Source of the DNA: an uncultured Phycisphaeraceae bacterium
GTDB taxonomy: Bacteria > Planctomycetota > Phycisphaerae > Phycisphaerales > UBA1924
Assembly (NCBI GenBank): GCA_964531675.1
Contig: CAZHFW010000007.1
Coordinates: 6,754-70,753, forward strand
Direction: 5' to 3'
DNA length: 64,000 nucleotides
Shown: in pieces, positions 33,444-50,879 of the stretch
Layout of the letters: each line of letters starts with the position of its first letter
How positions within the stretch are numbered: the stretch's first letter is position 1
Notes under the pieces: generated by a model
What the model was told of the DNA's origin: nothing
The model's database searches: none
The model's input: the letters and a program-made list of their open reading frames with translations, nothing else
Translations under genes and position numbers: made by a program

Positions 33444-34199
33444 CTAGCGGGCCTGTCCCCTCAGAATCGCGTCGGCGACCAGCAGATCCGTGGGCGCGTC
33501 GATGTCCACGACGTCGCCTTCGCGGTTGGTGATGCCGCGACGGTCCTTTCCCAGGAACGCGTGCGGCCCATCGGTAACGTCCGGAACTTCGCGGAACAGC
33601 GCCCGACGCGTCAGGGCCACGACGCCTCCATCAGGCACGAACGCGGGGGGAAGGTCCTGGCGGCGGAAGACGTTGTGGTAGAGCACGTCTCCCTCCCAGG
33701 GACCGATCTTGCCCGCCTCGTCGAGCCTGACCATCCACCACGGGTGATACTTGCCCACGCTCGCGTAGCTCTGCACGCTGTCGCATCCTGAGGAGGCGAG
33801 CAACGCCAGCGCGCGATCGATCAGATCCGCGGGTCGCACCGGGACGTTCGCGTAGAGGATGACGATGGGACGTTCCGGGGCGGCATGGCCTTCGAGCCTC
33901 TCGATCTCTTCCACAGCGTGCCGGGCCGCGTCGTCCACGCGGGCGGTGTCGGTCGCCAGTTCCTTCGGACGGCTCACGACGTCCACGCCCCGAGCCTTGG
34001 CGAGCGTGATCAGCGACGCGTCGTCGGTGGAGAGCACGACCTTGCCCACGCGCGACGACTGGGCGGCCTGATCGAGCGTCCAGACGGCGCAGGGCTTGCC
34101 CGCGACCATCGCGGCGTTCTTGCCCGGCACGCCTTTGCTGCCGGCGCGGGCCAGCACGATCGCCAGAGCTCCGCCTGAGTTGGGACGCGCGTGTGTCAT
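33444..34199 (-). CDS. neuA: Acylneuraminate cytidylyltransferase (CMP-nonulosonate synthetase)
   Basis: ALAIVLARAGSKGVPGKN is the CTP_transf_3 P-loop. The length is about 250 aa. Confidence 0.85.
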   Translation of the reverse strand: MTHARPNSGGALAIVLARAGSKGVPGKNAAMVAGKPCAVWTLDQAAQSSRVGKVVLSTDDASLITLAKARGVDVVSRPKELATDTARVDDAARHAVEEIERLEGHAAPERPIVILYANVPVRPADLIDRALALLASSGCDSVQSYASVGKYHPWWMVRLDEAGKIGPWEGDVLYHNVFRRQDLPPAFVPDGGVVALTRRALFREVPDVTDGPHAFLGKDRRGITNREGDVVDIDAPTDLLVADAILRGQAR

Positions 34200-34202
34200 G
34201 GA

Positions 34203-37200
34203 TCAGGCGGGCTGGAGTGCTCCCCGGGCTTCGACCGCGGCGCTGGCAAGGGGCGCTGCGATCGACTGAATCATGCGTTCGTCCAGCACCCGCGTGACCT
34301 GTCCATCGGCGCGGAAGCCCATGCTCATGGCGGCCAGCGCGTCGCGTGCGGCGCTCGGGATCGGCAGGGCGCGGAAGTGGTCCTCGGGGATCGGCGCGGG
34401 CAAGGCGTCGATCGCCGCTGCACCGCAATGCATGATCCAGTAGTCGTAGAAGAGTTCGACCTCGGGGAGCGTGAGATCGCACTTGGTGATCCGCGGCACC
34501 ACGAGCAGGCCCGGGATGCCGTCGACCATCCCGCGATCGCGCACCAGCGCGTCGAGATTCTGCCTGGACTGCGCCCACGTGTCGACGCCGGCCAGCGTGC
34601 GGAACGTTTCGCCCGCGATGCTGAGCAGATCGACGCTGACCAGCTCGATGCCCGCGCTCAGGAGCTGCTGAACCTGCTCGGGAGGGCCCGCCAGCTGCGT
34701 GCGGACGTGGATTCCCGAGGCCCCGGCTTCGCGGAGCTGATCCACGACCGACCGCCAGCAGGCGTACTCGAGCGGATCGCCCCGACCGGCGAGGCTGACC
34801 ACGATCGGGCGATAGGCCGACAGGGCGCGAACCTGTTCGATGGCGCGCTCCAGGGCGGCGGGCGCGATGTCCAGTTCGGGTTTGCCTTGCTCCCAGGCAA
34901 GCCTGGCGCCTTGCGGACGGCGTGTCGTGAGCTCGATGACGATCCGCTCGGTCGAGTCAAAGGCGCGGGCCGAGCGCGACAAGGCGGCGATGCTGCGCTC
35001 GCCCGCGACGCCCGGTCCGAACTCGGCGAGCACATCCGCGACGGCGCGGGCCAGTGCCGGGCTGTCGGGGATGCAGCGGAGCGTGGCGTCGCGCACGACC
35101 GGCGTGGGGATGACGCAGTTGCTGCGCGCGATCGGATCAAACTGCGGCGCGACCGGGATGTAGCCCACCATGCCCGCGGGGGTCGCAAAGAGCCCGATCT
35201 TCGAGCGTGCCTGCGCCGTTTCGCGGGCGGTGCTGGCCGCGATGAGCATGGCGCCCAGCCCCGGCGCCGCGTGCGCGAAGGTGATCCTGTGGTGTTCGGG
35301 ATTCTCCAGGAAGCGGTCCACCAGAGCGTCGGCCAGCGCGGGATCGAGCAAGGCCCAATCCGCACCCACGCCCACGGCAGCGTCGAGCTCGCAGGCTTTG
35401 CACATCTCCGATGTGATGGCCAGGTCGATCGCCTCGTCGTAGACCGAGAGCCCGCCCGGCCCGCCGCGCCAGTTCCGTCTGGACCAGGCGCGCCCGCCGA
35501 GCCGGAAGCGACGCTGGGCGCGCCACTGTCCCAGGTCGGTTGGGCGGATGTCGATCTCGAGCCCGTCGGGGGCCTTCCCGATGAGCTGGCGGATGCGCTC
35601 GGGCTGATCGGTCGCGAGGACGACGCGCCTGAGCTTCTTGGTCTTGGCCAGCGCCCGCAGCGTCCACACCAGGGGGTTGGCCCCCGCGATCAGCGTGGAG
35701 AGGTCGCGCGAGGCGCCCATCCCGGACCAGTCCGGGTCGGCGATGATGACCGCGGCGATGCGAGCGTTCGTGTGTGCCGCGGTCTGGGCGGCCGCGTTGT
35801 CCACCTTGGCGGCACGCTCGAAGCGCGGGCGATAGACCTTGGGCCCGCCCGCGAAGGCTGTCAGCGCGTCGTCCAGAATCGTGCCGACCAGCTCCGAGGC
35901 CTCGCGGAGCGCCTTCATGTTCTCCAGATCGCGCTCGATCTGGAGCCTCTGACGGCCCAGATCGTCGATCGAGCCCGCGATGTCGATGGCGCGGTCGGCC
36001 TTGAAGCGGCGCAGCGCGCCCGCCTGGTTCATGTACTGGGTCAGCCAGAATGCCTCACGCATCGCCAGGGCTCGGTCGCGGTTGGACTCGACCTGCGCGA
36101 TGAGCTGATGCGCCTTGTTCTGGTCGCGCTGGTGCTCCAGCAGCTTCTCGAGTGTTTTCTGGGTCTGCTGCGTCAGCTTCTCCATCGCCAGGACGTCGCG
36201 CCGGATCTCGCGGAGCCGGTCGATGATCTGGCGCTGGCGTTCCGCGTCGCGCGACCGACGCTGCCAGTCATCCACCAGGCCGGGCTTCCAGCCGATGGGC
36301 GTCTTGGCGAACTGTTCGAGCCCGCGGGCGAGCGTGATCGGAACGGTGTGCGCCTTGGCGACGCCTCCTTCGGTGGCGTCAAAGGTCTTGAGGCCTCGCT
36401 CCTTGTCCGCGAGGAAGTCGCGCTCGAACTGGACCAGATAGGTCGCCATCTGCTCGTCGGTGTAGATGTCGCGTCCGGCGCTGTCCTTGGCCTTGCGGAG
36501 CGCCCCGCCCATGCGCTTGACACGCTCCCACTCCATCATCTCGAGCGAGCGGAAGGGGTTGAGCTCGGAGGCCCAGATGTTGTGGATCTGAGCGCCTCCC
36601 GCGTAGTACTGGCCATCGGTGAAGCCCAGGTCCTGGCCGACCAGGAGCACCGGATCGCAGCCGAGATAGCGCGCCAGGTAGTACGCCAGATGCGCCACGG
36701 TCGCGCCCTTGGGGAGCTTTCCCATCGGGCGGAAGAGCTTCTCGCCCAGCACCACGTCGAGCACTTCTTCCGAGAGGCAGCGGATGCGTCCGGGATAGGC
36801 GTCCAGGATCGCCGCGTTGGCCTGGGGTTCGACCACGAGCGTCACGCCTTCAACGTCCGACGCGGTTAGGCCTTCGTAGAAGCGCTTGCTGACCTCGTGG
36901 TAGTCGAGGGCGGTGACGAAGTGGGGCTTGATCCCGCGGGCCAGGAGAGGCCTGAGAGTCGTCTGGGTCGCGATGATCACGCACGCGTCGCGCACGCCGG
37001 GCTTGCTGAGCTCGGCGATGTTGCGCTCCAGGCTTGGCCCGGCCGCGACGATGACCGCGGGCCTTCCCGCCGCGGCGTTTTGCAGGTCCTGAATGCCTTC
37101 GCCGAGCCCGTAGTGCGCCAGATTCATGCACATGTTGTGCATGGAGGTCTGCATCTGGACCATCGTCGTGATGACGTTGGTGCGCACCGCTTTGATCACG

Positions 37201-37832
37201 TCCACGAAGTTGCGCCCGAAGACCTCGGTCGCGGCGCCGATGCGACCCTTGGAGATCGGGTGCTCGATGATCTTGGTGCCCGAGGCCAGGTAGCCCTCAA
37301 AGCCCGCGACCGCGCCGGAGATGATCGCCGGCTCGTCTTCGCGATGGATGAGGACGAAGTTGGTCTGGCCGAGCCAGGGCGTGTGGTCGATGCGCTCCAG
37401 CACGCCCCGAAGCAGTCCCAGATCAGGCTCGAAGCAGATGATGACGCCCGAACGGCCCAGCCGCTCCGCCAGTGCGGCCAGGTGATATCCAAGCCCGAAG
37501 CCCGGCACGATGAGCGCCGCGTTCTCCTCAATCGGAGCGCCCTGGGCCCAACGGCCGGCCTCTTCCATCGGTCGCCGACGGCTCGCCAGCTGACGCGGGG
37601 CTTGCAGCAGTTCCTGAATCGTGGCGCTGGGAAGGCCCTCGTCGGTCCCGGTGAAGCTCAGGTCGTACCGGGGCGAGGCTTCCAGGATGGCGCGCACAGC
37701 CGCGGGGCTCGTGGCGAACAGGGCGCGCAGGTTGCGCTCCAGGATCGCCTGATCCGGAGGTGCCGCGTCGTCCCCGAGCGAGGAACAGACCGGACGCCAA
37801 TGCGATAACCCTTGACCTTGCGGGCCTTGCAT
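34203..37832 (-). CDS. Giant Maf-like (DUF115/MptE-like motility-accessory-factor) putative nonulosonic-acid glycosyltransferase, fused to a cytidylyltransferase-like domain and a Cys-less radical-SAM-like domain
   Basis: Maf N-domain (LIVPGFGLGYHL...ICFEPD). DUF115 core (GRPAVIVAAGPSLERNI...CVIIATQTTLRPLLARGIKPHFVTALDYHE...GCDPVLLVGQDLGF). A coiled-coil linker. A SpsF/CTP-transferase-like segment (AAVIIADPDWSGMG...LVWTLRAL...RVVLATDQPE). A C-terminal TIM-like segment (IVIELTTRRPQGARL...VSLAGRGDPLEY) lacks CxxxCxxC. The exact start is uncertain. Confidence 0.75.
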   Translation of the reverse strand: MQGPQGQGLSHWRPVCSSLGDDAAPPDQAILERNLRALFATSPAAVRAILEASPRYDLSFTGTDEGLPSATIQELLQAPRQLASRRRPMEEAGRWAQGAPIEENAALIVPGFGLGYHLAALAERLGRSGVIICFEPDLGLLRGVLERIDHTPWLGQTNFVLIHREDEPAIISGAVAGFEGYLASGTKIIEHPISKGRIGAATEVFGRNFVDVIKAVRTNVITTMVQMQTSMHNMCMNLAHYGLGEGIQDLQNAAAGRPAVIVAAGPSLERNIAELSKPGVRDACVIIATQTTLRPLLARGIKPHFVTALDYHEVSKRFYEGLTASDVEGVTLVVEPQANAAILDAYPGRIRCLSEEVLDVVLGEKLFRPMGKLPKGATVAHLAYYLARYLGCDPVLLVGQDLGFTDGQYYAGGAQIHNIWASELNPFRSLEMMEWERVKRMGGALRKAKDSAGRDIYTDEQMATYLVQFERDFLADKERGLKTFDATEGGVAKAHTVPITLARGLEQFAKTPIGWKPGLVDDWQRRSRDAERQRQIIDRLREIRRDVLAMEKLTQQTQKTLEKLLEHQRDQNKAHQLIAQVESNRDRALAMREAFWLTQYMNQAGALRRFKADRAIDIAGSIDDLGRQRLQIERDLENMKALREASELVGTILDDALTAFAGGPKVYRPRFERAAKVDNAAAQTAAHTNARIAAVIIADPDWSGMGASRDLSTLIAGANPLVWTLRALAKTKKLRRVVLATDQPERIRQLIGKAPDGLEIDIRPTDLGQWRAQRRFRLGGRAWSRRNWRGGPGGLSVYDEAIDLAITSEMCKACELDAAVGVGADWALLDPALADALVDRFLENPEHHRITFAHAAPGLGAMLIAASTARETAQARSKIGLFATPAGMVGYIPVAPQFDPIARSNCVIPTPVVRDATLRCIPDSPALARAVADVLAEFGPGVAGERSIAALSRSARAFDSTERIVIELTTRRPQGARLAWEQGKPELDIAPAALERAIEQVRALSAYRPIVVSLAGRGDPLEYACWRSVVDQLREAGASGIHVRTQLAGPPEQVQQLLSAGIELVSVDLLSIAGETFRTLAGVDTWAQSRQNLDALVRDRGMVDGIPGLLVVPRITKCDLTLPEVELFYDYWIMHCGAAAIDALPAPIPEDHFRALPIPSAARDALAAMSMGFRADGQVTRVLDERMIQSIAAPLASAAVEARGALQPA

Positions 37833-39524: not shown

Positions 39525-39762
39525 AAACTTGTTCCCGACAAAGGCTTGGGCGACTTGAGTGGGAGTTGGCCGATTTTGAAGGGTCGCGCGCGGAGCCGTC
39601 GATAGCTTTGTCCGTACAGGAAATGAGACGGGACGGGTGAGCATACCCGGGCCCAACGACGCGGAGCCGATCAGCCCAGGTCGGCATCGGAGGAGAGAGA
39701 ACCGCCGCCCGCGTCGATGAGGTGGAGTCCTGAGCGGCCAACCGGGGCAGGAGTTTGCTGCG

Positions 39763-40053
39763 ATGTCGAGTCTTTCGCCGATCGGGTCGAGCCAGGCTGA
39801 ACGCATCCGCGCCGCGCAGGAAGCGGCCAAGCGGACGTCGACCCCCGCGGGCCGGGCTGCGGAGGCGGCCAGTCGTGGATCGGACCAGGTTGAACTTTCC
39901 CCGATGGCGGGGTTCATGTCCAAGCTTCGCGACCTGCCGGTGAGGCAGGAGCTGGTGGACCGCGTCCGCGACGAGATCGATCGCGGCGTGTACGAGTCGG
40001 CCGAGAAGCTCAATGCTGCGGTCGACGAGATGATCGGGGATGCGCAAGGCTGA
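39763..40053 (+). CDS. flgM: Anti-sigma-28 factor FlgM
   Basis: 96 aa. The N-terminus is disordered and Ala/Ser-rich, and the C-terminus reads VELSPMAGFM..LPVRQELVDRVRDEIDRGVYESAEKLNAAVDEMI, the FlgM signature. Confidence 0.7.
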   Translation: MSSLSPIGSSQAERIRAAQEAAKRTSTPAGRAAEAASRGSDQVELSPMAGFMSKLRDLPVRQELVDRVRDEIDRGVYESAEKLNAAVDEMIGDAQG

Positions 40054-40196: not shown

Positions 40197-43100
40197 ATGG
40201 CGGTGTACGGCGGCTATGAGACGGTGCGAGAGCTGAATCGCACCGGACTTGGATCGGTCTGGCTGGCCAGGCCGGCCTCGTCGTCGGCTGCGCCGGGCGA
40301 GCCATCGCACGTCATCAAGGTTCGCGGCGATCTGGGGGAGCTGATCGGGAGCGACCGATCCGCGCGGGCCCAGGCGCAGTTCCTGGAGTCGGCCCAGATC
40401 CTGAGGGAGGCCAAGCCCGCACCGGGCGGCGCGCGGGCGCTGCTGATGGTCCAGGCGCTGGGACGCGCGGGCGCCGAGGCGTACGTCGTTTCCGAATACC
40501 ACCCGCGCACGCTCGCGAGTATCGCGGGTCGGGTGCGGGCGGATGGTCATGTCATGCGGCACGTGGCGCAGGCGTGCGCCACAGCGCTGCGCCAGCTGCT
40601 GGCGGCTGGCCGCGTGCACGGAAACCTGAAGGCCTCCAACGTGCTCTTCACGGGGACGGGCGAGCTTGCCGAAGCGATCGTGCGGCTGGACGATCCCGCG
40701 CCGATCGCGGGCGGCGGACCTCAGGAGGTCCAGGCCGAGCTGATGCAGATCGCCAGGTTGCTGGTGCTGCTGGCGACCGGGAAGCCTTACGACGATCTGC
40801 GCGGCTGGCCGATCCAGACTTCACCCGAATGGCAGAAGCTTGGCGAGGATGAGACGGTCTGGCGCAGGCTCTGCCATGACATTCTGAATCCCACGCCCGA
40901 GGCGCGGCCGAGCCTGGAGCAGTTCGAGGCACGCATCGCCGAGGGCGAAGCGGGTGTGCTGGCCAATCAGGAGGCGATGCAGGCGGCCGGGGGCATGGCG
41001 GGCGTCGGCTTCGAGGTCGCGCCGGAAGCTCCCAAGAAATCCAAGAAGCCCTGGTACATCGGCGGCGCGGTGGCGGCGGCGCTGGTGGGCTACGGCGTGT
41101 ACAGCACGGTGTTTGCGCCCAAGGTCGACACCGGGCCTCGCCAGGGCATCACGGTCACGCGCGAGGACAACACGCCCACCCTGGCGCCGGAACTCATGCC
41201 CGCGGCGGGCGACGATCCGCGCCTGGCTTGGACCGCGGAAGCGGCGCTGGGACAGCTCAAGACAGATCTGGAGTCGCTGGCCAATCCGGGCTCGGCGGAG
41301 CGTGCGCCCGAACTGGCGGATCAACGAGAGAAACTCCTCGCGGACGTGGCTGCGATGCTTGCTTCGCGGGGCGAGATCGAGGGCGAGCTCACCAAGCTCA
41401 AGGACGTCAAGTGGATCGTGCGCGACGCTGATGAAGTGCGCACGCGGAAAGACGGGATCGATCAGCGCCTGGCAGAGATCACGCAGAAGCTCGCGGACGT
41501 GCGGACCAGGTCCAAGGACTACGAGGATGCGCTCCGGCTGGAGGTCCGCAAGACCGACAGCCTCGACGGGTTCCAGGAGTACGTGCGTTCGCGCAAGAAC
41601 GCGGGCGGCGGCTTTGGCCCGAGCGTGAAGCCCTACTTCGGCGAGGCGTGCGACGAGCTGATCGCCATGCAAGGCGACCTCAACCAGCTCAACGACCTCT
41701 TCAAGAAGGTCACCAAGGGGCTCCAGGGTCTGGAGGACCAGATCACCGCCCAGCGGCCCAAGGGCACCAGGCCTCTGGACAAGGCGCTGGCGGCCAAGCT
41801 CGAACTCATCGCGCGAGATGCGCTGCACGAACTCAAGCCTCTCCGCGACGGCAAGTGGCTCGGCGAGGACGAGGCGTTCCGCAAGGACTGGGACCAGAGG
41901 CTCGGTGCGTTCGCGGCGGCCAGCACGGAACTCATCGCGGTCGCGGAGCAGTCCGCGGTCCTGTTGAAGAGGCTCAACGAAGGCTGGATGCTCGCGGAGG
42001 ACGCGGGTGACGGCGCGATCGGGACAGCGTGGGAGCGCATCGAGAAGTCTCCTGCGGCGGTGGAGTTCACCGAAGGCGAGCTCAAGCCTCATGGGGGCGA
42101 CGTCCTGGCGGTGAAGAAGCGTGTCGACGCGCTGCGCCAGCTTGCGGCAGCGACCGATGCGGATGTGCTGGACACCGCGATGACCGGGGCGGAGATCTCC
42201 GTGGGCGAGATCCGCACAGCGTGGGCGAGGCTCGGCGAGATTGCCTCTCCCGCGGGAGCAGCGGGTGTGGAGCGGCACATCAGGCTCGCGGAGCGCACGA
42301 CGCAGCTGATCGCCAGCAACGCCACGCCTTCGAAGCGTGAGCCCTGGAGCGGCGCGGTCGCGACGGAGCTTCGGGCCAGGTGGGCGCTGGCGATGACGCG
42401 GGTGTCGGAGCGCGAGCCGGTGGCGGCGGTGCTGGCGCTCAAGGACGCGGCGGGCGCGGATGACACGACGATCGCGGGGCTTCCTGGGTTTGTGCGGTAC
42501 AACATCGCGCTCTCGAGCCTCGACTCGGCGCGGGCCAAGCTCGTCAAGGGCGGGCAGTCGCGACAGCTGAAGAAGGCGACGCAGAAGTTCGCGGACGCAG
42601 CGGCGGGATTGGGCGCGGACATCGCGGGCCGTCCGGAGGTCGCCAAGGTGCTCTCGGGCATCGGATCGGCGATGGCGCAGAAGTCGAGCATCACCGAGGA
42701 TGACCTGAAGGACATGGGCCCGGGGGTGCGCGGCTGGACCGTGACGATCGCGGGCGAAGAGGCCGAGAAGGTGCTGTATACGCAGCCCATCGGACGCAAC
42801 GCCCAGGTGCTCGAGTTCCGCCAGCTCAAGAACGAGGATGCGGGCTGGGTCGCGTACGTGCAAGTGAACGAGCTCACGGTGGCGCAGTACAACGCGATCA
42901 CGCAGGGCGACAAGTGGCCCGAGGTGCGGGCGCTGCTTCCGGAGAATCCGCTCAGGCTTGGCGGCGGGCCGGCGACGTGGACGACGCGGCGCGGGCCGCG
43001 TGGCGGCGTTTCGCCTTCGCAGCAATATCTGGCGGCCAACCCGCAGATGCAGCCCGCGGAGCCTTATCCGAAGGATCTGCAGGTCGGGACGCCTGGGAAT

Positions 43101-43763
43101 GACTCCCCGATTCAGCAGCTCTCGCCCGATTCGGCGTTGATCGCGGCGCGGCTGGTGGCGTGCCGGTTCCCGACCGAGGACGAGTGGCTCGCGGCTCTGG
43201 CGTTCGAGGGCGGTGTTGACGAAGCACGGAAGGACGCGAACCTGCGCGATCTGACGTGGAAGAAGCAGTGGGCGTACATCGCGTCCGACCAGGTGCCTCA
43301 GTCGGGCAAGGCTGCGGCGTGGCCTGATCGCGGCGCGTTCTTCTCGCCCGACGGCGGGACCAGGCTCCGGGATCAGGACGCCAAGCCCGCGGTGGAAACC
43401 GACGACGGCGTGCTTTGGTTCCGGTCGTCGAAGGTGGGAGCGGGGCGTGAGTTCCGCAACCTGATCGGCAACGTGGCGGAGTTCGTGACGACGGGCGCGG
43501 AGCCCTTTGACTCGCTCAAGGCCGAGCGGACGGTCGTGTATCAGGCGCTGGGGAACTACGAGCAGGTGCGCGTGATGGGCGGATCGGCGCTCTCGGATGC
43601 GGCGATGACGTTGAACAAGGCCTGGACAGTGGATCCCGAGGAAGCCAAGCGTGGGTACTCGGATGTCGGTGTGCGGCTGGCGTTTACCGCCGGGCCGGTG
43701 GGGCCTCCCTTTGCGTTGATTCTGGGTGAGGCGATCGGTGAGCCGGTGTATTTGAAGCGGTGA
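40197..43763 (+). CDS. Bitopic sensor: cytoplasmic Ser/Thr-kinase-like pseudokinase, single TM, long coiled-coil ectodomain and C-terminal FGE-sulfatase (TagR-like) domain
   Basis: Kinase fold: GLGSVWLA, VIKV, E in helix C. The catalytic loop is HGNLKASN (40617-40640) instead of HRDLKxxN, and LDDP replaces DFG. TM: WYIGGAVAAALVGYGVYSTVF (about aa 287-307). C-terminus: ARLVACRFPTEDEWLAA...GNVAEFV...RVMGGSALS...YSDVGVRLAF, the FGE-sulfatase signature. The ATG at 40197 is preferred to the GTG at 40194. Confidence 0.75.
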   Translation: MAVYGGYETVRELNRTGLGSVWLARPASSSAAPGEPSHVIKVRGDLGELIGSDRSARAQAQFLESAQILREAKPAPGGARALLMVQALGRAGAEAYVVSEYHPRTLASIAGRVRADGHVMRHVAQACATALRQLLAAGRVHGNLKASNVLFTGTGELAEAIVRLDDPAPIAGGGPQEVQAELMQIARLLVLLATGKPYDDLRGWPIQTSPEWQKLGEDETVWRRLCHDILNPTPEARPSLEQFEARIAEGEAGVLANQEAMQAAGGMAGVGFEVAPEAPKKSKKPWYIGGAVAAALVGYGVYSTVFAPKVDTGPRQGITVTREDNTPTLAPELMPAAGDDPRLAWTAEAALGQLKTDLESLANPGSAERAPELADQREKLLADVAAMLASRGEIEGELTKLKDVKWIVRDADEVRTRKDGIDQRLAEITQKLADVRTRSKDYEDALRLEVRKTDSLDGFQEYVRSRKNAGGGFGPSVKPYFGEACDELIAMQGDLNQLNDLFKKVTKGLQGLEDQITAQRPKGTRPLDKALAAKLELIARDALHELKPLRDGKWLGEDEAFRKDWDQRLGAFAAASTELIAVAEQSAVLLKRLNEGWMLAEDAGDGAIGTAWERIEKSPAAVEFTEGELKPHGGDVLAVKKRVDALRQLAAATDADVLDTAMTGAEISVGEIRTAWARLGEIASPAGAAGVERHIRLAERTTQLIASNATPSKREPWSGAVATELRARWALAMTRVSEREPVAAVLALKDAAGADDTTIAGLPGFVRYNIALSSLDSARAKLVKGGQSRQLKKATQKFADAAAGLGADIAGRPEVAKVLSGIGSAMAQKSSITEDDLKDMGPGVRGWTVTIAGEEAEKVLYTQPIGRNAQVLEFRQLKNEDAGWVAYVQVNELTVAQYNAITQGDKWPEVRALLPENPLRLGGGPATWTTRRGPRGGVSPSQQYLAANPQMQPAEPYPKDLQVGTPGNDSPIQQLSPDSALIAARLVACRFPTEDEWLAALAFEGGVDEARKDANLRDLTWKKQWAYIASDQVPQSGKAAAWPDRGAFFSPDGGTRLRDQDAKPAVETDDGVLWFRSSKVGAGREFRNLIGNVAEFVTTGAEPFDSLKAERTVVYQALGNYEQVRVMGGSALSDAAMTLNKAWTVDPEEAKRGYSDVGVRLAFTAGPVGPPFALILGEAIGEPVYLKR

Positions 43764-43845: not shown

Positions 43846-44409
43846 ATGAGCCAGACCGGACAGAGCGGGCCCTTGCCGGAGAGCGTGGCGCAGGCTCTGC
43901 GCGCCAGGCTGCAGATCCCCGAAGGCCAGTCGATCGATCCGGCGCGGGCGGCGGAGCTTTTGGTGCCGCTGCTCGAGCTTGCGATCAGCATGGATCAGCT
44001 GGTGTGGAGGACGTGGTCGCAGCGGGTGGCGCCCGACTCGCAGGTCAAGCGTCGCGAGCTCTTGCAGAAGGCGGCGGCGGCTCACGTGACGGGTCAGGAG
44101 CTGGACCAGGAGAAGAGCCTGGCGCAGTTCACGCAGGACGCGGAAAGGCTCAGGCAGCTCACGCTGTGCCTGCTTTCGGCGATCGGCCAGACCGGAACGC
44201 TCTTTGCGCAGCGCTGGATGGACAAGTACAGCACCGAGTCGATCGAGCGGGCGGCGCAGTCGGAGAAGAAGCTGATCGAGGCGTTCGGCGCGACGTGCTG
44301 GCGCAAGTTCGGGGAGCTGACCGCGGGGATGGAGAAGTCGACGATCGACGCCGAGGTGAACCAGGGGATCGCGGAGTTTGTGGAACAGGTGATGAAGGCG
44401 GGGCGGTAG
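43846..44409 (+). CDS. Small all-helical cytoplasmic protein of unknown function, embedded in the TssLM-TPS operon
   Basis: AGGAG (43835-43839) lies 6 nt before the ATG. The 187-aa translation has no TM or signal. I recognise no family. Confidence 0.55.
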   Translation: MSQTGQSGPLPESVAQALRARLQIPEGQSIDPARAAELLVPLLELAISMDQLVWRTWSQRVAPDSQVKRRELLQKAAAAHVTGQELDQEKSLAQFTQDAERLRQLTLCLLSAIGQTGTLFAQRWMDKYSTESIERAAQSEKKLIEAFGATCWRKFGELTAGMEKSTIDAEVNQGIAEFVEQVMKAGR

Positions 44410-44466: not shown

Positions 44467-45240
44467 ATGACGCTGATCGAACTTTGCGAACCGCTGATGC
44501 AGTTCATGTGCCGGGTGAACCGGTCGGCCCACAAGGGGCTGCCGATGGATCCTGCGCAGGTGCGGGCGGACGTGCGCCAGATGCTGCAGGAGATCGCGAC
44601 CAAGGCGCAGCGGGCGGGGATGAGCGAGAACTTCGAGAAGTCTCGCAAGGCGATCCACACGTTCATCGATGCGACGGTGATCGGTGTGGGGGGGCTGCTT
44701 GGCCAGCAGTGGAAGGCGATGAGGCTCGAGCCCGAGGGGGCGCTTCAGGACTTCTTCGCGCAGGTCGAGGCGGCCCTGGGCGATCCGACCGACGAGGCGA
44801 CGGACAGGCTGGCGGTGTATTACCACTGCATCGGCCTGGGCATGGCGGGCGCGACGACGGAGGACACCGAGTCGCTCCGGCGGATGATGGCCAAGATGCA
44901 GGCCAGGCTGCGCGGGCGGATGGATGTTGATCCGTCGGCGCGGATCTGTCCCGAGGCGTACGAGTGTCTGAACACCGCGAACCTGATCGAGCCGCCGGCG
45001 CGTTCGCTGGCCCCGATGGCGATCGCGCTGGTGGGGACGGTGGTGGTGCTCGCGGTGGCCAATGTGCTGTTCTTCCGCCATTCGTCGGCGGATCTGTCGA
45101 CGGCGCTGAAGGACATCGCGGGGACGACCTCGGTGCAGACGACCGGGCAGTCCGGGGCGGCCAAGGCCGAGCCGAACGCGGGGAAGCCCGCGGAACAGAA
45201 GAACGCGGAAGCGAACAAGCAGGCCGAGCAGGGCAAGTAA
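44467..45240 (+). CDS. tssL: DotU/TssL-family inner-membrane protein
   Basis: The layout is typical of DotU: a cytoplasmic helical domain (LIELCEPLMQFMCRV...KAIHTFIDATV...FFAQVEAALGDP...RLAVYYHCIGLGMAG...LRRMMAKMQARL) and then one TM (MAIALVGTVVVLAVANVLFF). There is no OmpA/peptidoglycan-binding extension. Confidence 0.75.
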   Translation: MTLIELCEPLMQFMCRVNRSAHKGLPMDPAQVRADVRQMLQEIATKAQRAGMSENFEKSRKAIHTFIDATVIGVGGLLGQQWKAMRLEPEGALQDFFAQVEAALGDPTDEATDRLAVYYHCIGLGMAGATTEDTESLRRMMAKMQARLRGRMDVDPSARICPEAYECLNTANLIEPPARSLAPMAIALVGTVVVLAVANVLFFRHSSADLSTALKDIAGTTSVQTTGQSGAAKAEPNAGKPAEQKNAEANKQAEQGK

Positions 45241-45247: not shown

Positions 45248-48200
45248 ATGATGCCGATGGGCGACACGATGTCGAATATGAAGGGTCCGATCCGCTCGGC
45301 GCTGGTGGTGCTGGCGGTGATCGGTCTGCTGGCGGCGCTGACGCTCGCGGGGCTCCCCAAGGGCCTGATGATCGCGATCGCGGCGGGGATGCTGGTCGTT
45401 GGGCTCCTGATCCTGGGATGGCAGCTGGTGATCCAGATGGCCGACCGCGGGAAGTCGGGGCCCTTTGCCAAGCTGATCGCGGGGAGCGCCTCGGGCGGCC
45501 AGATCGCCGATCCGGCGATGAAGGCGCGCCTGGACGATCTGCGCAAGAAGTTCGAAGAGGGCATCGAGAAGTTCCGCGCCGCGGGGAAGAACCTGTACGC
45601 GATTCCGTGGTATCTGCTGGTGGGCGAGCCCGGTTCGGGGAAGAGCTTCCTGGTCCGCAAGGCGGGCAAGACGGGCAACTGGTTCCCCCCGGGGCTTCAG
45701 GACGAGCTTCAGGGCACCGGCGGCACGATCAACATGCACTGGTGGTTCACCAACTACGCGGTGGTGGTGGACACCGCGGGCAAGATGCTCATGCAGGAGG
45801 TCAAGCCCGGAGAGAACAGCGAGTGGCGCGAGTTCCTCAAGCTCCTCAAGCTCGCCAGGCCGAGCTGCCCGATCAACGGGCTTTTGCTCGTCATTCCCGC
45901 GGACACGCTGATCAAGGACCGGCCCGAGCAGATCGAGAAGAAGGCCGGAACGATCGCGCGGCAGCTTGACCTGATCCAGCGCACCCTCGACGTGCGCTTC
46001 CCGGTGTTCGTGATCATCACCAAGTGCGATCTGATCACGGGCTTCCGCGACTTCTTCGACGCGATCGACGATGCGACGGCGCAGCATCAGATCCTGGGGT
46101 GGAGCAATCCCGCGGAGCTGGACGCGACGTTCAATCCGGACGAAGTCGATCAGCACATGGCCGAGGTGCGCGACCGCCTGATGCGCCGCCGTGCGGGCAT
46201 GCTGCTGGACCCGGTGCACACCGAGAATCCCAAGGCGCGGCGTCTTGATCAGCTCGATTCGCTCTTTGCGCTCCCCGAGTCGCTGATGAAGCTCTCGCCG
46301 AGGCTGCGCCGGTATCTGGAGATGGTGTTCGTGGCGGGCGAGTGGTCGCCCAAGCCTCTGTTCCTGCGCGGGATCTATTTCACGTCGAGCGTGCAGGAAG
46401 GCAGCGAGCTCGACGAGATGCTGGCCGATGCGCTGGGCATCCCGATCGACGCGATCACGCCTCTGACGCCTGACGAGAAGGAAAAGGCGTTGTTCCTGCG
46501 GGACGTGTTCTCGCAGAAGATCTTCCGCGAGAAGGGGCTCGTGACCAGCGCCAGCAACGTCAAGCGGCAGCAGCGCCGCCGTCGGCTTGCGGTGCTCGCG
46601 GGCGCCGCGGTGACGACCGCGGTGTTCGTCGGTCTGACGTTCCTGGGCGCGACGCAGCTCTCCGGACGCATCGATGGCCCGCGCAAGTTCTGGCAGGACA
46701 TCGCGCGGCGGGCTTCGGGCGCCGAATCGGGGTCCAGGCTCGGACTGCTCGAGGGCTCTCCCAAGGGGCTGCTCTATCGCGGCGACAAGCAGGTCGAGCT
46801 GGTGGACTCCGGCAAGACCGTCAGGCTCGGCGAGCTTCCCAAGCAGACCCAGGAGGAGGCGGGCAAGAGCATCGCGATTCCCGCGGCGTTCAGGCCTCTC
46901 TCGGCGGTGCTCGGGGATGTGACGGGGAATCTGCGCTCCAGCGAACGTGCGGCGGCGCACGCGGCGCTGACGGTGAACAACGCGCTGATGCCCGCGGTGG
47001 ACGCGGCCCGCGCCAAGATGGCCGACCCGAATCTGGAGTGGGACGCCTTCGCCTCCGCGGCGCTGGCGGAACTGCTCAGGCTCGAGCGTGACGCGGCCCT
47101 GGCCAACGCCAAGGGCCTCCCGCTTCCCGAGCGGGCCAACGTCGTGGATCTCGACAGGCTCTACCGCTTCGTTCTCAGCGACGAGGAGTACGGCAAGTTC
47201 CTGCTCGACAAGGACTCGCTCCAGAAGGCTCTGGACTACGCGTTCGTCGCGGCGGACGGGCCTCGCCTGGCGTGGCCTCCCAGCGCTGTCGGCGCGGGGA
47301 CCGAGCCTGCGCGTCTGGCGATCGCGGCGGGTCTCAAGAGGCTCAATGACACCAACGGCGCGATGCGCACCGCGGTGAAGTATCCGCTTCTGGTCGAGCT
47401 GCGCGCGTCCCTTGAGGAGATGCGCGACGCCGAGTCGGCGCTGCTCAAGCTCGATGACAGCTACAAGGGCGAGGCGAGCGAACCCCGCACCAAGGCGACG
47501 TACCAAGAGACCGCGGCGGCGTGGTCGGCGGCGGTGGGCAAGGTCGCGCAGACGCGTGATCGCGTGCTCAAGGTCGTCGAGACGCTCGGCGGCGGGAACA
47601 TGGGCGGGATGAAGGACCTGTGCGCTCAGGCCCGCGATGAGCTCGCCAAGGCGGGCGAGTCGACCTATGAGACGATTCTGGCGCCCCTCAAGGAGGGCCA
47701 GGCGGCGTTGAACTCGTCGGGCGCGGGCGGGGCGATCATGGCCACGTTCAAGGTGCTCTCCAACGCGCAGGTCGAGCTTCCCAAGATGATCGCGTCGCGG
47801 ATCGACGAACTCGATCGCGCACTGGGCACGCTCGAGCCCGACTTCCTCGCCAAGCTTCAGGGTGATCAGACCAGGCTCTTTGACGCGCGGTACCGCATGT
47901 ACGCGCTGGCCAGCGAGCAGCTCAAGGAGATCGAGCAGGCCCAAGCGGATCCGCTGGCGGGCATTGATGCGGCCTCCGCGTCCATCGATCAGGCGGCCAA
48001 GGCCTCGGGACGCAACGCGCGGACCGATGAGGCGGCGGAGCTGGCGCGGTTTGCGCTGCGTCTGGCCCGCCGTGACCGGCTATATACGGCGATCAACGGT
48101 GCGCTGGCTTCGCTCCCGACGGGGGAGGATCAGACCACCAAGGCGATCGCGGAGCGTGCGAGCAAGCTCCGCAAGCTCGACCGGCCCACGATCGAGCTCA

Positions 48201-49624
48201 CGGCGCAGCCTGCGCAGTTTGCGGCGGAGTTCCATCCCGAGGCGGCCAAGGGCATCCTGGCGAACGTCGCGACGGCGCGGCAGCAGCTTGCGGGCTCGGG
48301 CGGCGCCAAGGTGCTGGAGGCGGAAGCGCTGAGCGCCAAGATGGGGGCGATCGTCCCCGGCGTGGAGGCCTACGCGAAGAAGTACGTCGCGTACTGGTCG
48401 GCCCAGGTCTTTGCCGAAGCCAGGCCGGTCGCGTTTGCGGATTGGGACAAGGCCCGTCGCGGCGTGAGCGGCGTGGGCGTTTTCCCGGTGAACGACGCGC
48501 TGTCCAGGCTTGGTGAGACCGCGGCCGAGGCGCTCAAGGCTCTGCCGGCGGGCTATCAGGCGTGCGCCGAGCGCGACGCCAGACTTCCGGAGATCGAGGC
48601 GGCGCGGAAGGCGCTGACCGCGGATCTCACGGGCGCGGTCCAGGATGCGATCGACAACGGCTGGAACAAGCTCCCCGCGGACGTGCGCGGCGCACGCGAC
48701 GCGATCGTCACGCTGACCGCGGAAGAGTTCGAGCGGCGCTATCTGCCGTCGTACGTGGAAGTCGCGCCCGGCGCTGCTTCCTACGGCACGGGGTACTGGG
48801 GCGCGGTGTTCCTGGAGGCCTTCAAGTCGCTCGCGGCGGGCGCCAACGCGTCGGCCAAAGACGCTCTGGAGCGTCTGAAGACCGCGACCAACAAGTTCCC
48901 GATCGTGCGCGACGCCAAGGACGTGTGCACGACCGAGGAGATCACCACCGCTTCGGACGATCTGGCGCTGCTCATCGGGCCCACGCCTCTGGCGGCCAGC
49001 GGCGAGCGCTCGATCCGTGCGGGCGACCGCTCCAAGCGATTCAGGCTCATCGACGAGCAGCTCGATCTGCTCACGGGCGAGAATGTTCTTGGTCCCGAGG
49101 TTCGCACGTGGGTGAAGAAGCTCACCCCGATGTTCGCGTACTTCACGGGCGATCAGCGCCTGCGGGTCGTGGAGGTTTCCATGCCCGACGCTTCGCAGAA
49201 GCGTGAAGCGCCGGCGCGGATGCCCGAACTTCTTCCGGGCGAGCAGCGGTTCAAGTTCGTGGAGCTCGCGCCGGGCCAGGGACGCGATGCCAAGGGACGC
49301 AAGCAGGCCGGGTTCACCGGGGCGGCGCTGGGGACCGCGGAGCTTGGCAGCTCCGGGCCTCTGTCGTTCCGCGTGTATCAGGGCGAGCGTGACAAGGCCG
49401 CTGCGGCGGAGGTCACGATCGGCGATGCGGGCGCCGCGGGCTGGGCGCCGTTGACGGTGACGTTCATGGAGGACGCGGTTCCGGGCGCTGACGCGAGGAC
49501 GTGGCTCGTGCCTCTGAAGATCGAGCAGAACAAGAAGCAGTACTACATGTGGGTGCAGCTGCGGTTCTCCCGCGAGCTTCCCCGCGTGGACGAGTGGCTG
49601 ACGGGATCCGCCTGGCCGAAGTGA
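45248..49624 (+). CDS. tssM: IcmF/TssM-family envelope-spanning NTPase (1458 aa)
   Basis: Two N-terminal TMs. LYAIPWYLLVGEPGSGKSFLVRKAG (Walker A), GTINMHWWFTNYAVVVDTAG (Walker B), W..FLKLLKLARPSCPINGLLLVIPAD and RFPVFVIITKCDLITGFRDFF are all hallmark IcmF N-domain motifs. A third TM (LAVLAGAAVTTAVFVGLTFLG) precedes an ectodomain of about 1000 aa. The start could be the ATG at 45257, which has better SD spacing. Confidence 0.8.
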   Translation: MMPMGDTMSNMKGPIRSALVVLAVIGLLAALTLAGLPKGLMIAIAAGMLVVGLLILGWQLVIQMADRGKSGPFAKLIAGSASGGQIADPAMKARLDDLRKKFEEGIEKFRAAGKNLYAIPWYLLVGEPGSGKSFLVRKAGKTGNWFPPGLQDELQGTGGTINMHWWFTNYAVVVDTAGKMLMQEVKPGENSEWREFLKLLKLARPSCPINGLLLVIPADTLIKDRPEQIEKKAGTIARQLDLIQRTLDVRFPVFVIITKCDLITGFRDFFDAIDDATAQHQILGWSNPAELDATFNPDEVDQHMAEVRDRLMRRRAGMLLDPVHTENPKARRLDQLDSLFALPESLMKLSPRLRRYLEMVFVAGEWSPKPLFLRGIYFTSSVQEGSELDEMLADALGIPIDAITPLTPDEKEKALFLRDVFSQKIFREKGLVTSASNVKRQQRRRRLAVLAGAAVTTAVFVGLTFLGATQLSGRIDGPRKFWQDIARRASGAESGSRLGLLEGSPKGLLYRGDKQVELVDSGKTVRLGELPKQTQEEAGKSIAIPAAFRPLSAVLGDVTGNLRSSERAAAHAALTVNNALMPAVDAARAKMADPNLEWDAFASAALAELLRLERDAALANAKGLPLPERANVVDLDRLYRFVLSDEEYGKFLLDKDSLQKALDYAFVAADGPRLAWPPSAVGAGTEPARLAIAAGLKRLNDTNGAMRTAVKYPLLVELRASLEEMRDAESALLKLDDSYKGEASEPRTKATYQETAAAWSAAVGKVAQTRDRVLKVVETLGGGNMGGMKDLCAQARDELAKAGESTYETILAPLKEGQAALNSSGAGGAIMATFKVLSNAQVELPKMIASRIDELDRALGTLEPDFLAKLQGDQTRLFDARYRMYALASEQLKEIEQAQADPLAGIDAASASIDQAAKASGRNARTDEAAELARFALRLARRDRLYTAINGALASLPTGEDQTTKAIAERASKLRKLDRPTIELTAQPAQFAAEFHPEAAKGILANVATARQQLAGSGGAKVLEAEALSAKMGAIVPGVEAYAKKYVAYWSAQVFAEARPVAFADWDKARRGVSGVGVFPVNDALSRLGETAAEALKALPAGYQACAERDARLPEIEAARKALTADLTGAVQDAIDNGWNKLPADVRGARDAIVTLTAEEFERRYLPSYVEVAPGAASYGTGYWGAVFLEAFKSLAAGANASAKDALERLKTATNKFPIVRDAKDVCTTEEITTASDDLALLIGPTPLAASGERSIRAGDRSKRFRLIDEQLDLLTGENVLGPEVRTWVKKLTPMFAYFTGDQRLRVVEVSMPDASQKREAPARMPELLPGEQRFKFVELAPGQGRDAKGRKQAGFTGAALGTAELGSSGPLSFRVYQGERDKAAAAEVTIGDAGAAGWAPLTVTFMEDAVPGADARTWLVPLKIEQNKKQYYMWVQLRFSRELPRVDEWLTGSAWPK

Positions 49625-49667: not shown

Positions 49668-50879
49668 ATGGCACGCAAGTCCGACAAACCCCTGAGCCTC
49701 AACTTCGGCGCCTTCGGGAAGCACCCGGCGTGGGACGATCACATCGACGATCTGGGTCTGGAGACGGACCGGCTCGTGGAGGTGAGGCGTCGCCTGTACG
49801 CGGAGGGCATCTCCGCAAACGTGGACTCGGGCGCGTGGGACAAGCTTGAGGACGGCGCCAGGCTGCCGGTGTTCGAGCACTCGATCCTCTGGCTTTGGGG
49901 GGAAGAGGTCTGCTTCGGCAGGATCTGGTCGAGCCGGGACGCCAAGGGGCGCACGCAGTATCCGATGGCGCTGGTCGCGGAGGGTGTGGGCGTGGACCCC
50001 GCGTGGCTCGTGCGGACCGCGGGACCTCGGCTCGAGCGCGGGCGTTCGAGCTGTGCTGAGATTGGCGAGCAGGACAAGGTGCGCGAGGCGATCGATCAGA
50101 TCCGCGCGGACCTGCGTTCGGAGCTGGCAGCAGCGGGGGATCAGGCGGCGGATCGCTGGGAGCCCGATCCGTACCTGCTTGCGGCGATTGCGGATCGCTC
50201 TGAACTCGCGACGGATGGGCAGAAGGCCCTGGGCCTGGTCCGCCTGATGTACGAGATCGAGAAGGAGATGGACGAGTTCCGTCGTCCTGATTCCAAGAGC
50301 TGGCGGCGTTCCAGGCTCCTGACGGGTCGCCCGCGGCATATGCGTGTGCCGGGCTGGGGCGAGGCGGGCGCGTGCATGCTGACGTGGGGCGCGTTCCTGC
50401 GGACGCAGCTCGCGGAAGAAGCGCCGATCGTGCTGATCGCGCCGGTCAGGCCGGGCGGGCGATCCCTGGGCTGGGTCGATGTCCTGGTCGGAGAGCCCGG
50501 TCCCACGGAGTGGTTCTGCCTCCGCGCGGGCGTGCGGGCGCTGGCGCTGCACACCGAGATTCCGTACAAGATCGAGGGCGACTTCCAGGACCGGTGCAGG
50601 CTGCTCATGGAGGGCTGGAAGCGCGGCGAGCTTGGGTTTGAAGCGGCGACCGGCTCGACCACCCTGGAGAAGATCGCGGAGAAGGCTGCGTCGATCGCGC
50701 AGGAGACGGTGCTGCCCGGGCCTGAGAGCAAGGGCAAGCCTCGTTCCAACTCGATGCTGATCGTGGGTGTCGCGCTGGTCGTCGGCGCGGCGGCATTGAT
50801 CGTGCTTGCGCTGGTGGGATGTGCTGCGAGCAACAGATCGCAGTCGCCGGTGTCGCCAAGCGGGATGGTGACGCCATGA
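49668..50879 (+). CDS. tagF: TagF (DUF2094)-like protein with a C-terminal transmembrane anchor
   Basis: The N-terminus LNFGAFGKHPAWDDHIDDLG matches the TagF GxFGKxPxxxDF motif. The C-terminal MLIVGVALVVGAAALIVLALVG (about 50751-50831) is a predicted TM. The stop overlaps the tpsB ATG. Confidence 0.7.
   Translation: MARKSDKPLSLNFGAFGKHPAWDDHIDDLGLETDRLVEVRRRLYAEGISANVDSGAWDKLEDGARLPVFEHSILWLWGEEVCFGRIWSSRDAKGRTQYPMALVAEGVGVDPAWLVRTAGPRLERGRSSCAEIGEQDKVREAIDQIRADLRSELAAAGDQAADRWEPDPYLLAAIADRSELATDGQKALGLVRLMYEIEKEMDEFRRPDSKSWRRSRLLTGRPRHMRVPGWGEAGACMLTWGAFLRTQLAEEAPIVLIAPVRPGGRSLGWVDVLVGEPGPTEWFCLRAGVRALALHTEIPYKIEGDFQDRCRLLMEGWKRGELGFEAATGSTTLEKIAEKAASIAQETVLPGPESKGKPRSNSMLIVGVALVVGAAALIVLALVGCAASNRSQSPVSPSGMVTP

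Follow-up and report, generated by a model that had tools for sequence, protein, structure and literature searches.

A predicted membrane pseudokinase with a formylglycine-generating-enzyme-like head, encoded beside TssKLM/TagF-like and two-partner secretion genes in planctomycetes and their relatives

In Pseudomonas aeruginosa the membrane kinase PpkA acts downstream of the periplasmic protein TagR, and assembly of TssK is controlled by the pathway that leads from TagQ/TagR through PpkA to Fha (PMC6657622, PMC10482370). In the type VIIb secretion system (T7SSb), the bitopic pseudokinase YukC/EssB serves as a structural hub and not as an enzyme (10.1101/2020.05.09.085852). Fusions of canonical bacterial serine/threonine kinases (STKs) with a sulfatase domain of the formylglycine-generating enzyme (FGE) type have also been described, for example in the 'Proteo1' family of a bacterial STK atlas (10.1101/2025.01.12.632604). 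The protein analyzed here is encoded at positions 40197-43763, plus strand, of a 64,000-nucleotide stretch (hereafter the window) from an uncultured Phycisphaeraceae bacterium (GenBank assembly GCA_964531675.1, contig CAZHFW010000007.1, positions 6,754 to 70,753 of the forward strand). [quoted passage not shown] From family-wide comparisons the protein is predicted to consist of a dead-looking kinase domain inside the cell, a transmembrane (TM) helix and a non-enzymatic FGE-fold domain outside. Its gene cluster, judged by homology, joins T6SS-derived membrane and baseplate parts to a TpsB/TpsA pair exporting a giant filamentous-haemagglutinin-like protein. We consider it reasonably probable that the protein is a bitopic inner-membrane pseudokinase serving as the transmembrane scaffold or switch of a hybrid apparatus made of TssKLM/TagF-like and TpsBA components. 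We treat PpkA and TagR as reasonable analogues in function and not as demonstrated relatives. The gene and the parts of its product are listed here, with residues given as amino acids (aa).

40197-43763, plus strand: whole gene, predicted bitopic protein of pseudokinase, TM helix, stalk and FGE-like domain; 1188 aa from the ATG
40197-40982, plus strand: predicted cytoplasmic Hanks-type kinase-like (pseudokinase) domain, aa 1 to about 262 (profile, hhalign and Foldseek)
40245-40259, plus strand: degenerate Gly-rich loop remnant GLGSV, aa 17-21, aligned to GGMSEV of PknB
40317-40319, plus strand: beta3 Lys K41 (equivalent of the VAIK Lys), within VIKV at aa 39-42, aligned to PknB Lys40
40617-40640, plus strand: catalytic loop HGNLKASN, aa 141-148, with the HRD Arg replaced by Gly and the catalytic Asp by Asn
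40689-40697, plus strand: DDP in place of DFG, aa 165-167 (LDDP, aa 164-167), from the family census
40698-40757, plus strand: truncated activation segment, about 20 residues between DDP and helix alphaF (spacing and hhalign gap)
41049-41117, plus strand: single TM helix, aa 285-307 (hydropathy scan), with KKSKK directly before it
41310-41756, plus strand: coiled-coil-like periplasmic segment, aa 372-520 (heptad scan)
41757-42728, plus strand: periplasmic middle region, aa 521-844, conserved and with many helix-forming residues (homologue matches)
42729-43691, plus strand: periplasmic FGE-sulfatase-fold domain, about aa 845-1165, predicted to be non-catalytic (PF03781 and PDB profile)
aa 990-1000, plus strand: RFPTEDEWLAA
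aa 1091-1097, plus strand: GNVAEFV
43578-43595, plus strand: GGSALS aligned to GGSYLC of FGE, Ser at the catalytic Cys position (HMMER alignment to 6muj)
aa 1157-1163, plus strand: VGVRLAF

The open reading frame (ORF) is real. Its GC content at third codon positions is 0.86 and its codon-position GC pattern is that of a real gene (window GC 67%), the 1188-aa protein recurs unchanged among the calls on 14 public contigs, and full-length homologues are found at 31-79% identity. An alternative GTG start is located at 40194, one codon 5' of the ATG at 40197. All motif positions given in the sequence-only reading (GLGSV, VIKV, HGNLKASN, LDDP, the TM segment, RFPTEDEWLAA, GNVAEFV and VGVRLAF) were found to be correct.

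Searched on its own, the protein scores below threshold against Pfam Pkinase (11.8 bits, E = 0.16; cutoff 31.7), and a single-sequence phmmer search against PDB sequences yielded no match. A profile built from five N-termini of the family matched 288 PDB sequences at E <= 10, and 59 of the 60 matches listed were protein kinases, the exception being a weakly matching RNA-binding protein (E = 0.033). The top match was StkP of S. pneumoniae (E = 2e-6), and in the HMMER alignment GrvHGNLKPaNvLl sits on GIVHRDLKPQNILL. When a 43-member profile was compared by hhalign with PknB of M. tuberculosis, whose sequence serves as a yardstick only, a probability of 97.6% was obtained (E = 3.9e-12, 178 columns); K41 was paired with the catalytic Lys40 and HGNLKASN with HRDVKPAN. 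The StkP and PknB alignments thus bear out both the VIKV lysine and the catalytic-loop register read from the sequence, and a mis-registration that hides a canonical HRD was not borne out. AlphaFold2 (AF2) models of both domains were built from 5-sequence alignments. The low-confidence model of the N-terminal domain (pLDDT 53) returned only kinases in a Foldseek search against the PDB (963 matches at E <= 0.001, TM-scores 0.36-0.44) and is used as weak corroboration only, and the C-terminal model (pLDDT 32) was discarded. By these profile matches the N-terminus is assigned a Hanks-type kinase fold.

The state of the catalytic motifs was analyzed in a census of 175 family sequences, including 41 full genes from 86 related loci and 132 sequences obtained from the top 150 representatives that an exhaustive profile search returned. 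The beta3 Lys is kept as K in 154 of these sequences (88%), the HRD His as H in 97% and the catalytic-loop Asn as N in 94%. Both the Arg and the Asp of HRD are lost in the family. The Arg position is Gly in 94% of members, and the survey of HGN in relatives that had been proposed with the sequence-only reading found the Asp position occupied by N (63%), A (12%), R (7%), K (5%), D (3%), E (3%), G (3%) or S (2%), that is, mostly by residues other than Asp. The impression of a catalytically dead kinase is therefore strengthened, as the base is lost family-wide and D is present in only 6 of the 175 members. This rarity makes scaffold or switch signalling likelier than canonical phosphotransfer, in agreement with the scaffolding role that had been suggested. 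The Gly-loop-like GLGSV noted earlier is present but is not a conserved loop: the first two of the three canonical glycines are N14 and T16 in the hhalign alignment to PknB, and the remnant varies across the family. The alphaC Glu is not clearly conserved in the family either. The claim that no DFG is present is literally true; yet the second Asp of the DDP in its place (register uncertain) is D in 93% and E in 5% of members, the next Pro is P in 94%, and D166 is probably the metal-binding Asp.

The distance from the DFG-like Asp to the Gly at the end of alphaF is 29 residues vs 56 in PknB, about 27 shorter, and hhalign inserts a 22-residue gap after DDP. From this spacing it follows that the activation loop, the P+1 loop and the APE motif have no counterpart. 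Two hallmarks of active Ser/Thr kinases, the HRD Asp and an activation segment with P+1 loop and APE, are absent from the target. As judged from the alignments, the kinase fold has lost its catalytic base, the HRD Arg, a working Gly-loop and the activation and substrate-binding segment, and has kept the residues that hold nucleotide and metal, namely the beta3 Lys, the catalytic-loop Asn and the DFG-like Asp. These Lys, Asn and Asp residues appear to be under selection while the catalytic-base position is free to vary, and a nucleotide-gated switch, not a dead relic, is therefore predicted. The family is best described as a pseudokinase family in which nucleotide binding is probably retained.

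A hydropathy scan placed the TM helix at aa 285-307, close to the previously suggested aa 287-307. In 39 of 41 family members a single TM falls within aa 245-310, and 36 of the 38 complete members have a single TM and a uniform architecture. The single helix, together with the KKSKK that precedes it, implies an N-in, C-out topology in which the kinase fold is cytoplasmic and about 880 aa are outside. This evidence agrees with the order of cytoplasmic kinase fold, TM helix and periplasmic FGE fold proposed at the outset. The following segment had been described as about 600 aa of coiled-coil-like sequence, which was overstated: in a crude in-house scan against shuffled sequences, heptad periodicity was found only at aa 372-449 and 482-520 (45 windows above threshold vs a shuffle mean of 1.2). 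SMC, Rad50, ATG16 and Seryl_tRNA_N match weakly in this span. The middle region at aa 521-844 has no Pfam or NCBIfam match but is conserved: homologues from the exhaustive search cover it, one example being a matched stretch of 338-1168.

The FGE-sulfatase assignment of the C-terminus is well founded. PF03781 scores 24.6 bits on the whole protein (cutoff 23.3) and 29.5 bits (E = 7.6e-7) on the last 299 aa, and 13 of 22 diverse C-termini of the family match PF03781 and no other family. A profile of these 22 C-termini matched only FGE-fold structures in the PDB at significant E-values, with bacterial FGE at E = 1.8e-7 and further matches to SUMF2, T. curvata FGE, CalU17, human SUMF1 and EgtB; a C-terminus unrelated to FGE, which would have undermined the sequence-only reading, was not encountered. 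The FGE-like domain begins near aa 845, ahead of the start of the Pfam match, and covers the canonical RLPTxxEW stretch, with RFPTEDEW (43164-43187) aligned to RLPTEAEW of FGE. Catalytic activity as an FGE was considered and rejected, as GGSALS stands where FGE has GGSYLC and the active-site Cys is gone. The Ser at this position is invariant or near-invariant in the family, the cysteine pair of the formylglycine-generating signature GGS[YF]LC...C is missing from the target, and the C-terminal 200 aa of the family hold no conserved Cys. The sole invariant Cys of the domain is located in the region of the RLPTxxEW motif, away from the active site. On these residues the C-terminal domain is predicted to be a non-catalytic FGE-fold module.

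The pseudokinase gene heads a tightly spaced, operon-like cluster of genes on the same strand, and no terminator-like site was seen between its stop codon and the TssM-like gene. The cluster continues with the following features.

43846-44409, plus strand: conserved 187-aa protein ('p187'), without Pfam or NCBIfam match
44467-45240, plus strand: DotU/TssL-like protein (Pfam DotU, 58.3 bits)
45248-49624, plus strand: TssM/IcmF-like protein, 1458 aa (IcmF-related_N, 200.7 bits)
49668-50879, plus strand: TagF-like membrane-anchored protein, 403 aa (weak TagF_N / TIGR03373 match, aa 14-105)
50876-53248, plus strand: TpsB-like (ShlB/FhaC/Omp85) outer-membrane transporter (Pfam ShlB, 29.9 bits; cutoff 22.7)
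53397-64000 and past the window end, plus strand: giant TpsA-like protein of at least 3,530 aa with an N-terminal two-partner secretion (TPS) domain; the frame is open from 53370

The TssL-, TssM- and TagF-like neighbors named in the sequence-only reading are indeed present downstream, as supported by the Pfam DotU and IcmF-related_N matches and the weak TagF_N match. The T6SS setting assumed for them did not hold, however: the T6SS-like content is limited to a diverged TssL, aa 48-490 of a TssM and a TagF-like protein, and the cluster runs into a TpsB/TPS pair. The TssL-like protein scores 38 bits against NCBIfam TIGR03349, below the cutoff of 89.95, and the TagF-like protein is also below its NCBIfam cutoff. 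Against TIGR03348 the TssM-like protein reaches 274.7 bits over aa 48-490, which comprise the P-loop and TM region, and falls below the cutoff of 388; its remaining approximately 950 aa, presumably periplasmic, match no family. As the homology to TssM ends at aa 490, something else has likely taken the place of the TssM part responsible for the T6SS channel and the contact with TssJ. The scan of window ORFs, which took in most of the large ones on both strands, turned up no sheath, tube, spike or ClpV gene and no further match to a T6SS core family, and tblastn with the TssK of a related locus (L001) detected no TssK in the window. Of the T6SSi core set (TssA-TssM with TssBC, Hcp, VgrG and TssEFGK), the window therefore contains only the diverged TssL and the N-terminal TssM module, and by its gene content the locus is not a T6SS. 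Fha, PppA, TagQ and TagST partners are also missing from the cluster, so that the threonine-phosphorylation pathway has no visible components there.

The giant protein is clearly recognizable as a two-partner secretion substrate, with 86 bits for Pfam TPS (cutoff 33.5) and 67.8 bits for NCBIfam adhes_NPXG (cutoff 29.1). An Omp85-type TpsB adjoining a TPS-domain exoprotein is the arrangement of two-partner secretion (T5b), a class that does not include the pseudokinase protein itself. A tiny ORF is located at about 53248-53400 between the TpsB-like gene and the giant ORF, and minus-strand ORFs at 54.7-63 kb are probably shadows of the giant ORF.

The extent of the family was determined by sequence searches of increasing depth. 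A word-indexed search found 8 relatives of the target, and a first contig scan with patterns taken from the target itself gave no confirmed relative. HMMER over 1.84 billion representatives returned 1,836 at E <= 0.001 and 637 at E <= 1e-30; these representatives (50% identity) are mostly 1,200-1,500 aa long, and those looked up carried no functional name. Related loci were located by probing named genomes with the TssM-like neighbor, which yielded 235 loci, of which 80 were fetched; synteny was analyzed over 86 loci, and loci other than the window were probed with the window proteins and the L001 TssK. All but 2 of the fetched loci belong to Planctomycetota (Phycisphaerae, Planctomycetaceae and Pirellulales) or Verrucomicrobiota (Opitutaceae, Lacunisphaera, Ereboglobus, Chthoniobacterales and Puniceicoccales), the exceptions being one Sumerlaeota and one unclassified locus. 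The kinase-FGE arrangement is, from these comparisons, the standard architecture of a large family of the Planctomycetes-Verrucomicrobia-Chlamydiae (PVC) superphylum and not a one-off fusion. The idea that PpkA and TagR were condensed into one polypeptide in this organism is therefore abandoned, as the same architecture runs through the whole PVC family with its 1,836 representatives; the fusion is the ancestral architecture of that family.

The gene order kept in these loci is pseudokinase-FGE, p187-like, TssK, DotU, TssM-like, TagF-like, TpsB-like and TPS giant. TssK is present in most related loci and scores 208 bits against an NCBIfam equivalog cutoff of 100. The p187 family (187-314 aa) is found in most of the 86 loci, directly upstream of TssK/DotU, and the p187 of the window is 47% identical to the C-terminal part of a 314-aa gene at the same position in L001. 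The position of the TpsB-like gene is also kept, and the TpsB/TPS linkage is conserved from Phycisphaerae to Opitutaceae. Among the loci with enough flank on both sides, TpsB/TPS genes accompany the pseudokinase-FGE gene in 14 cases and are missing in 6; where the pseudokinase-FGE gene is absent, they are found in 0 and missing in 9. Gene neighborhoods therefore tie the pseudokinase gene to the TssKLM/TagF-like module, specifically to its TpsBA-bearing variant. A minimal module of five genes (p187-like, TssK, DotU, TssM-like and TagF-like) without pseudokinase and TpsBA is found in L041 and in 13 more loci (L009, L026, L027, L033, L034, L045, L046, L048, L050, L053, L058, L060 and L073). In L041, the one related locus examined for this purpose, the module is flanked by SecA, EngA and aspartate carbamoyltransferase genes, and no T6SS sheath, tube, spike or ClpV genes were found in these flanks. 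Loci of this type indicate that the TssKLM-like unit stands alone in PVC genomes.

A second FGE-like domain occurs in the same loci. In many of them the TagF-like protein is bitopic, 1,200-1,900 aa long and carries its own C-terminal FGE-like domain, a paralogue of the periplasmic head of the pseudokinase protein, which suggests paired periplasmic modules. The 403-aa TagF-like protein of the window lacks this domain and is homologous to the N-terminus of one of the long proteins, P0008 (E = 2e-14), with the common motif FGKHPAWxDHI. The features of the related loci are these.

L001 13685-14629 and L041 6716-7648: p187 homologues
L041 6716-15319: minimal five-gene module
L002 10001-13849 (P0008), and L011, L012, L013, L016, L019, L024, L028, L054 and L063 at about 14.3-19 kb: TagF-FGE-like proteins

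One of the loci, L064, comes from a cultured isolate, Ereboglobus sp. PH5-10 (NZ_JAQFIP010000002.1). It has the locus type in full: it encodes a pseudokinase-FGE protein with an HGA loop and also carries p187, TssK, DotU, TssM-like, TagF-like and TpsB-like genes. This isolate provides an experimental entry point.

Other parts of the window contain genes that superficially recall the P. aeruginosa pathway or a flagellar system. A protein with FHA, GAF and SpoIIE/PP2C domains is encoded at 16155-17795 on the minus strand and adjoins TolC-like and MacB-type ABC transporter genes (17870-25871), a grouping reminiscent of Fha/PppA and TagST. The FHA-PP2C protein was considered as an Fha/PppA partner and rejected: its gene, the only FHA-PP2C gene found, is on the other strand at a distance of 22 kb and has unrelated neighbors. 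At 31253-37832 on the minus strand a nonulosonic-acid set is found (UDP-GlcNAc 2-epimerase, NeuB and CMP-sugar cytidylyltransferase), which adjoins a 1209-aa MptE-like, possibly Maf-type, protein and a small FlgM-like ORF at 39760-40053 on the plus strand. This group resembles a flagellin-glycosylation and flagellar-regulation set. The FlgM-like ORF, upstream of the pseudokinase gene, was not accepted as a member of the system: it is present in close relatives only, beside the nonulosonic-acid and Maf-like genes, and is therefore probably outside the secretion locus.

How the protein relates to the described systems can now be stated. PpkA of the P. aeruginosa H1-T6SS and of A. tumefaciens has, like the target, an N-terminal cytoplasmic Hanks-type fold, one TM helix and a periplasmic C-terminus, and is encoded beside TssL/TssM/TagF-type genes. 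Unlike PpkA, the target has lost the Arg and the catalytic Asp of HRD along with its Gly-loop and activation segment, has an FGE fold where PpkA has a periplasmic VWA domain (no VWA match at E <= 1), and resides in a cluster without Fha, PppA and contractile T6SS parts. TagR is an FGE-fold protein. Like the head of the target, it is periplasmic, presumably non-enzymatic and placed upstream of a membrane kinase-fold protein; unlike the stand-alone TagR, the target head is fused to its kinase fold via a stalk of about 540 aa, and the TagQ lipoprotein and TagST transporter of the tagQ/tagS/tagT/ppkA setting are missing from the target cluster. Among the papers searched, none paired TagR with formylglycine. 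YukC/EssB of T7SSb shares a bitopic layout with N-terminal cytoplasmic pseudokinase, one TM helix and an extracytoplasmic domain in a secretion locus. However, YukC is a Firmicute protein with a different extracellular domain that lacks nucleotide-binding motifs and ATP binding, in contrast to the K, N and D kept in the target family, and no YukC/EssB match was found in the PDB profile and Foldseek searches of the N-terminal domain.

The Proteo1 STKs have the same order of kinase fold, TM helix and FGE-sulfatase domain (10.1101/2025.01.12.632604) but are catalytically intact and detectable by Pfam Pkinase, whereas the target family is degenerate (11.8 bits), has a much longer stalk and is linked to a secretion locus. 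The catalogued bacterial pseudokinases ActPs1-3, GLW, CP1, DYD and DLHK also combine a Hanks-type fold with degraded motifs, and ActPs3 is likewise without an activation loop. In each of these seven families some or all members lack the VAIK Lys, and several of the families lack the DFG Asp; the target family keeps both and, in this comparison, loses only the Arg and Asp of HRD. The seven occur in actinobacteria, cyanobacteria or proteobacteria, with no TM helix in CP1; the target family is PVC-specific and membrane-anchored. By their published descriptions none of the seven combines a TM helix with an FGE-sulfatase domain, and the target family matches none of them. A more distant likeness was found to the pseudokinase of RNase L (HMMER, E = 8e-4), which also has a very short segment after DFG and shares the pattern D-x6-G-x-PQEV-x2-(D/E)L-x2-(L/I)(G/A)RL with the target family. 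In RNase L nucleotide binding serves dimerisation and not phosphotransfer. RNase L differs from the target in being eukaryotic and soluble and in retaining the HxD Asp, and the likeness may be convergent.

The role of a transmembrane scaffold or switch has to be weighed against three other explanations. That the protein is a PpkA/TagR-type regulator of a genuine contractile T6SS, with the sheath, tube, baseplate and spike genes elsewhere in the genome, the adjacent TssL/TssM/TagF-like genes as its membrane complex and TpsBA adjacent by accident, appears unlikely. Such a role would suit the TssL-, TssM- and TagF-like genes directly downstream and the bona fide TssK of most related loci, given that TagQ/TagR and PpkA of P. 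aeruginosa control TssK assembly (PMC6657622). The gene content speaks against it: no further T6SS core gene emerged from the scan of window ORFs, L041 is flanked by housekeeping genes, the TssM-like protein is devoid of the TssM-homologous periplasmic part, and the cluster has neither Fha nor PppA; moreover, the linkage to TpsB/TPS extends across loci of Phycisphaerae and Opitutaceae and is correlated in its occurrence with the pseudokinase gene. It is quite unlikely that the domain is an active kinase, or another nucleotide-dependent enzyme, of an atypical mechanism such as weak HER3-like phosphotransfer or SidJ-like ATP-dependent modification. A catalytic position that tolerates A, R, K, G and S, the degenerate Gly-loop, the alphaC Glu that is not clearly conserved, the missing activation and P+1 loops for binding a protein substrate and a cluster without an FHA-domain or phosphatase partner all disfavor such activity, even though the 88-94% conservation of the beta3 Lys, the catalytic-loop Asn and the DFG-like Asp points to selection on the nucleotide/metal site and a few members have HGD. 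Very improbable is a working FGE or other oxidative C-terminal enzyme that acts on a periplasmic or secreted substrate such as the giant TpsA, with the kinase remnant as a mere anchor. Its similarity to FGE, SUMF and EgtB structures is significant and PF03781 is above threshold, but Ser replaces the catalytic Cys, the only invariant Cys is that of the RLPTxxEW region, and a kinase domain that is no more than an anchor does not fit well with the conservation of its nucleotide-site residues.

Several observations also weigh against the scaffold or switch role that we favor. The equivalence of D166 with the DFG Asp is not firm; the hhalign and HMMER registers differ by 2-4 residues, for which reason it is stated here only as probable. 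HGD with the catalytic Asp is kept in P0006 and 5 other representatives (6 of 175), so some relatives might be active, and this minority hints that the ancestor was active or that a few members still are. Both AF2 models (pLDDT 53 and 32) are too poor to show the geometry of the pocket. A contractile T6SS may be encoded in another part of the genome. No TssK is present in the window or its close relatives, which means that the composition of the module varies. Finally, the co-occurrence of the pseudokinase-FGE gene with TpsB/TPS genes (Fisher p = 7e-4) is calculated without regard to phylogenetic non-independence, and flanks of 10 kb may miss TpsB genes.

In the mechanism proposed for the transmembrane scaffold or switch, the FGE-like head would bind a periplasmic or outer-membrane partner or ligand, plausibly of the TpsB/TpsA branch, and a signal or mechanical link would travel via the stalk and the TM helix. 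Depending on nucleotide, the pseudokinase domain would then switch docking or dimerisation for the TssK/TssL/TssM/TagF-like module in the cytoplasm, and no phosphorylation would be involved. YukC/EssB of T7SSb and the TagQ/TagR-PpkA-Fha pathway are precedents that support this mechanism. The fold assignments, the motif states, their conservation across the family, the reasoning on topology, the synteny and the co-occurrence are results of the analysis; nucleotide binding, the partners and the direction and purpose of signalling are inferred. A further-reaching reading, possible but on the doubtful side, takes the PVC TssK/TssL/TssM-N/TagF-like module not as a T6SS remnant but as the inner-membrane and cytoplasmic platform of an unrecognised envelope-spanning apparatus that would work with TpsB/TpsA in exporting or anchoring giant surface fibres. 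The pseudokinase-FGE protein would then be its dedicated transmembrane coupling or regulatory subunit and would bind nucleotide without phosphotransfer. In its boldest form this reading would connect the module to the fibre-bearing 'crateriform' complexes of planctomycetes, the components of which are unknown (PMC5394234).

A membrane pseudokinase as subunit or regulator of a secretion apparatus is of a known kind. For the type of locus that joins T6SS-derived TssKLM/TagF parts to two-partner secretion in the PVC superphylum, and for the family, no description was found in literature searches on TssM/TssL with two-partner secretion and PVC bacteria and on IcmF/DotU with giant proteins. Bacterial pseudokinases have barely been studied and a recent catalogue comprises seven families, to which the present one adds a further large family of 1,836 representatives. 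TssK/L/M- and TagF-type proteins are the usual markers of contractile T6SSs, and here they are coupled stably to the two-partner secretion of giant proteins across two phyla; a 'T6SS' assigned automatically in a PVC genome should therefore be treated with caution. Should the coupling prove functional, this would be a second case in which another secretion pathway has co-opted TssL/TssM homologues, after DotU/IcmF in type IVB, and would provide a handle on how PVC bacteria build giant surface fibres.

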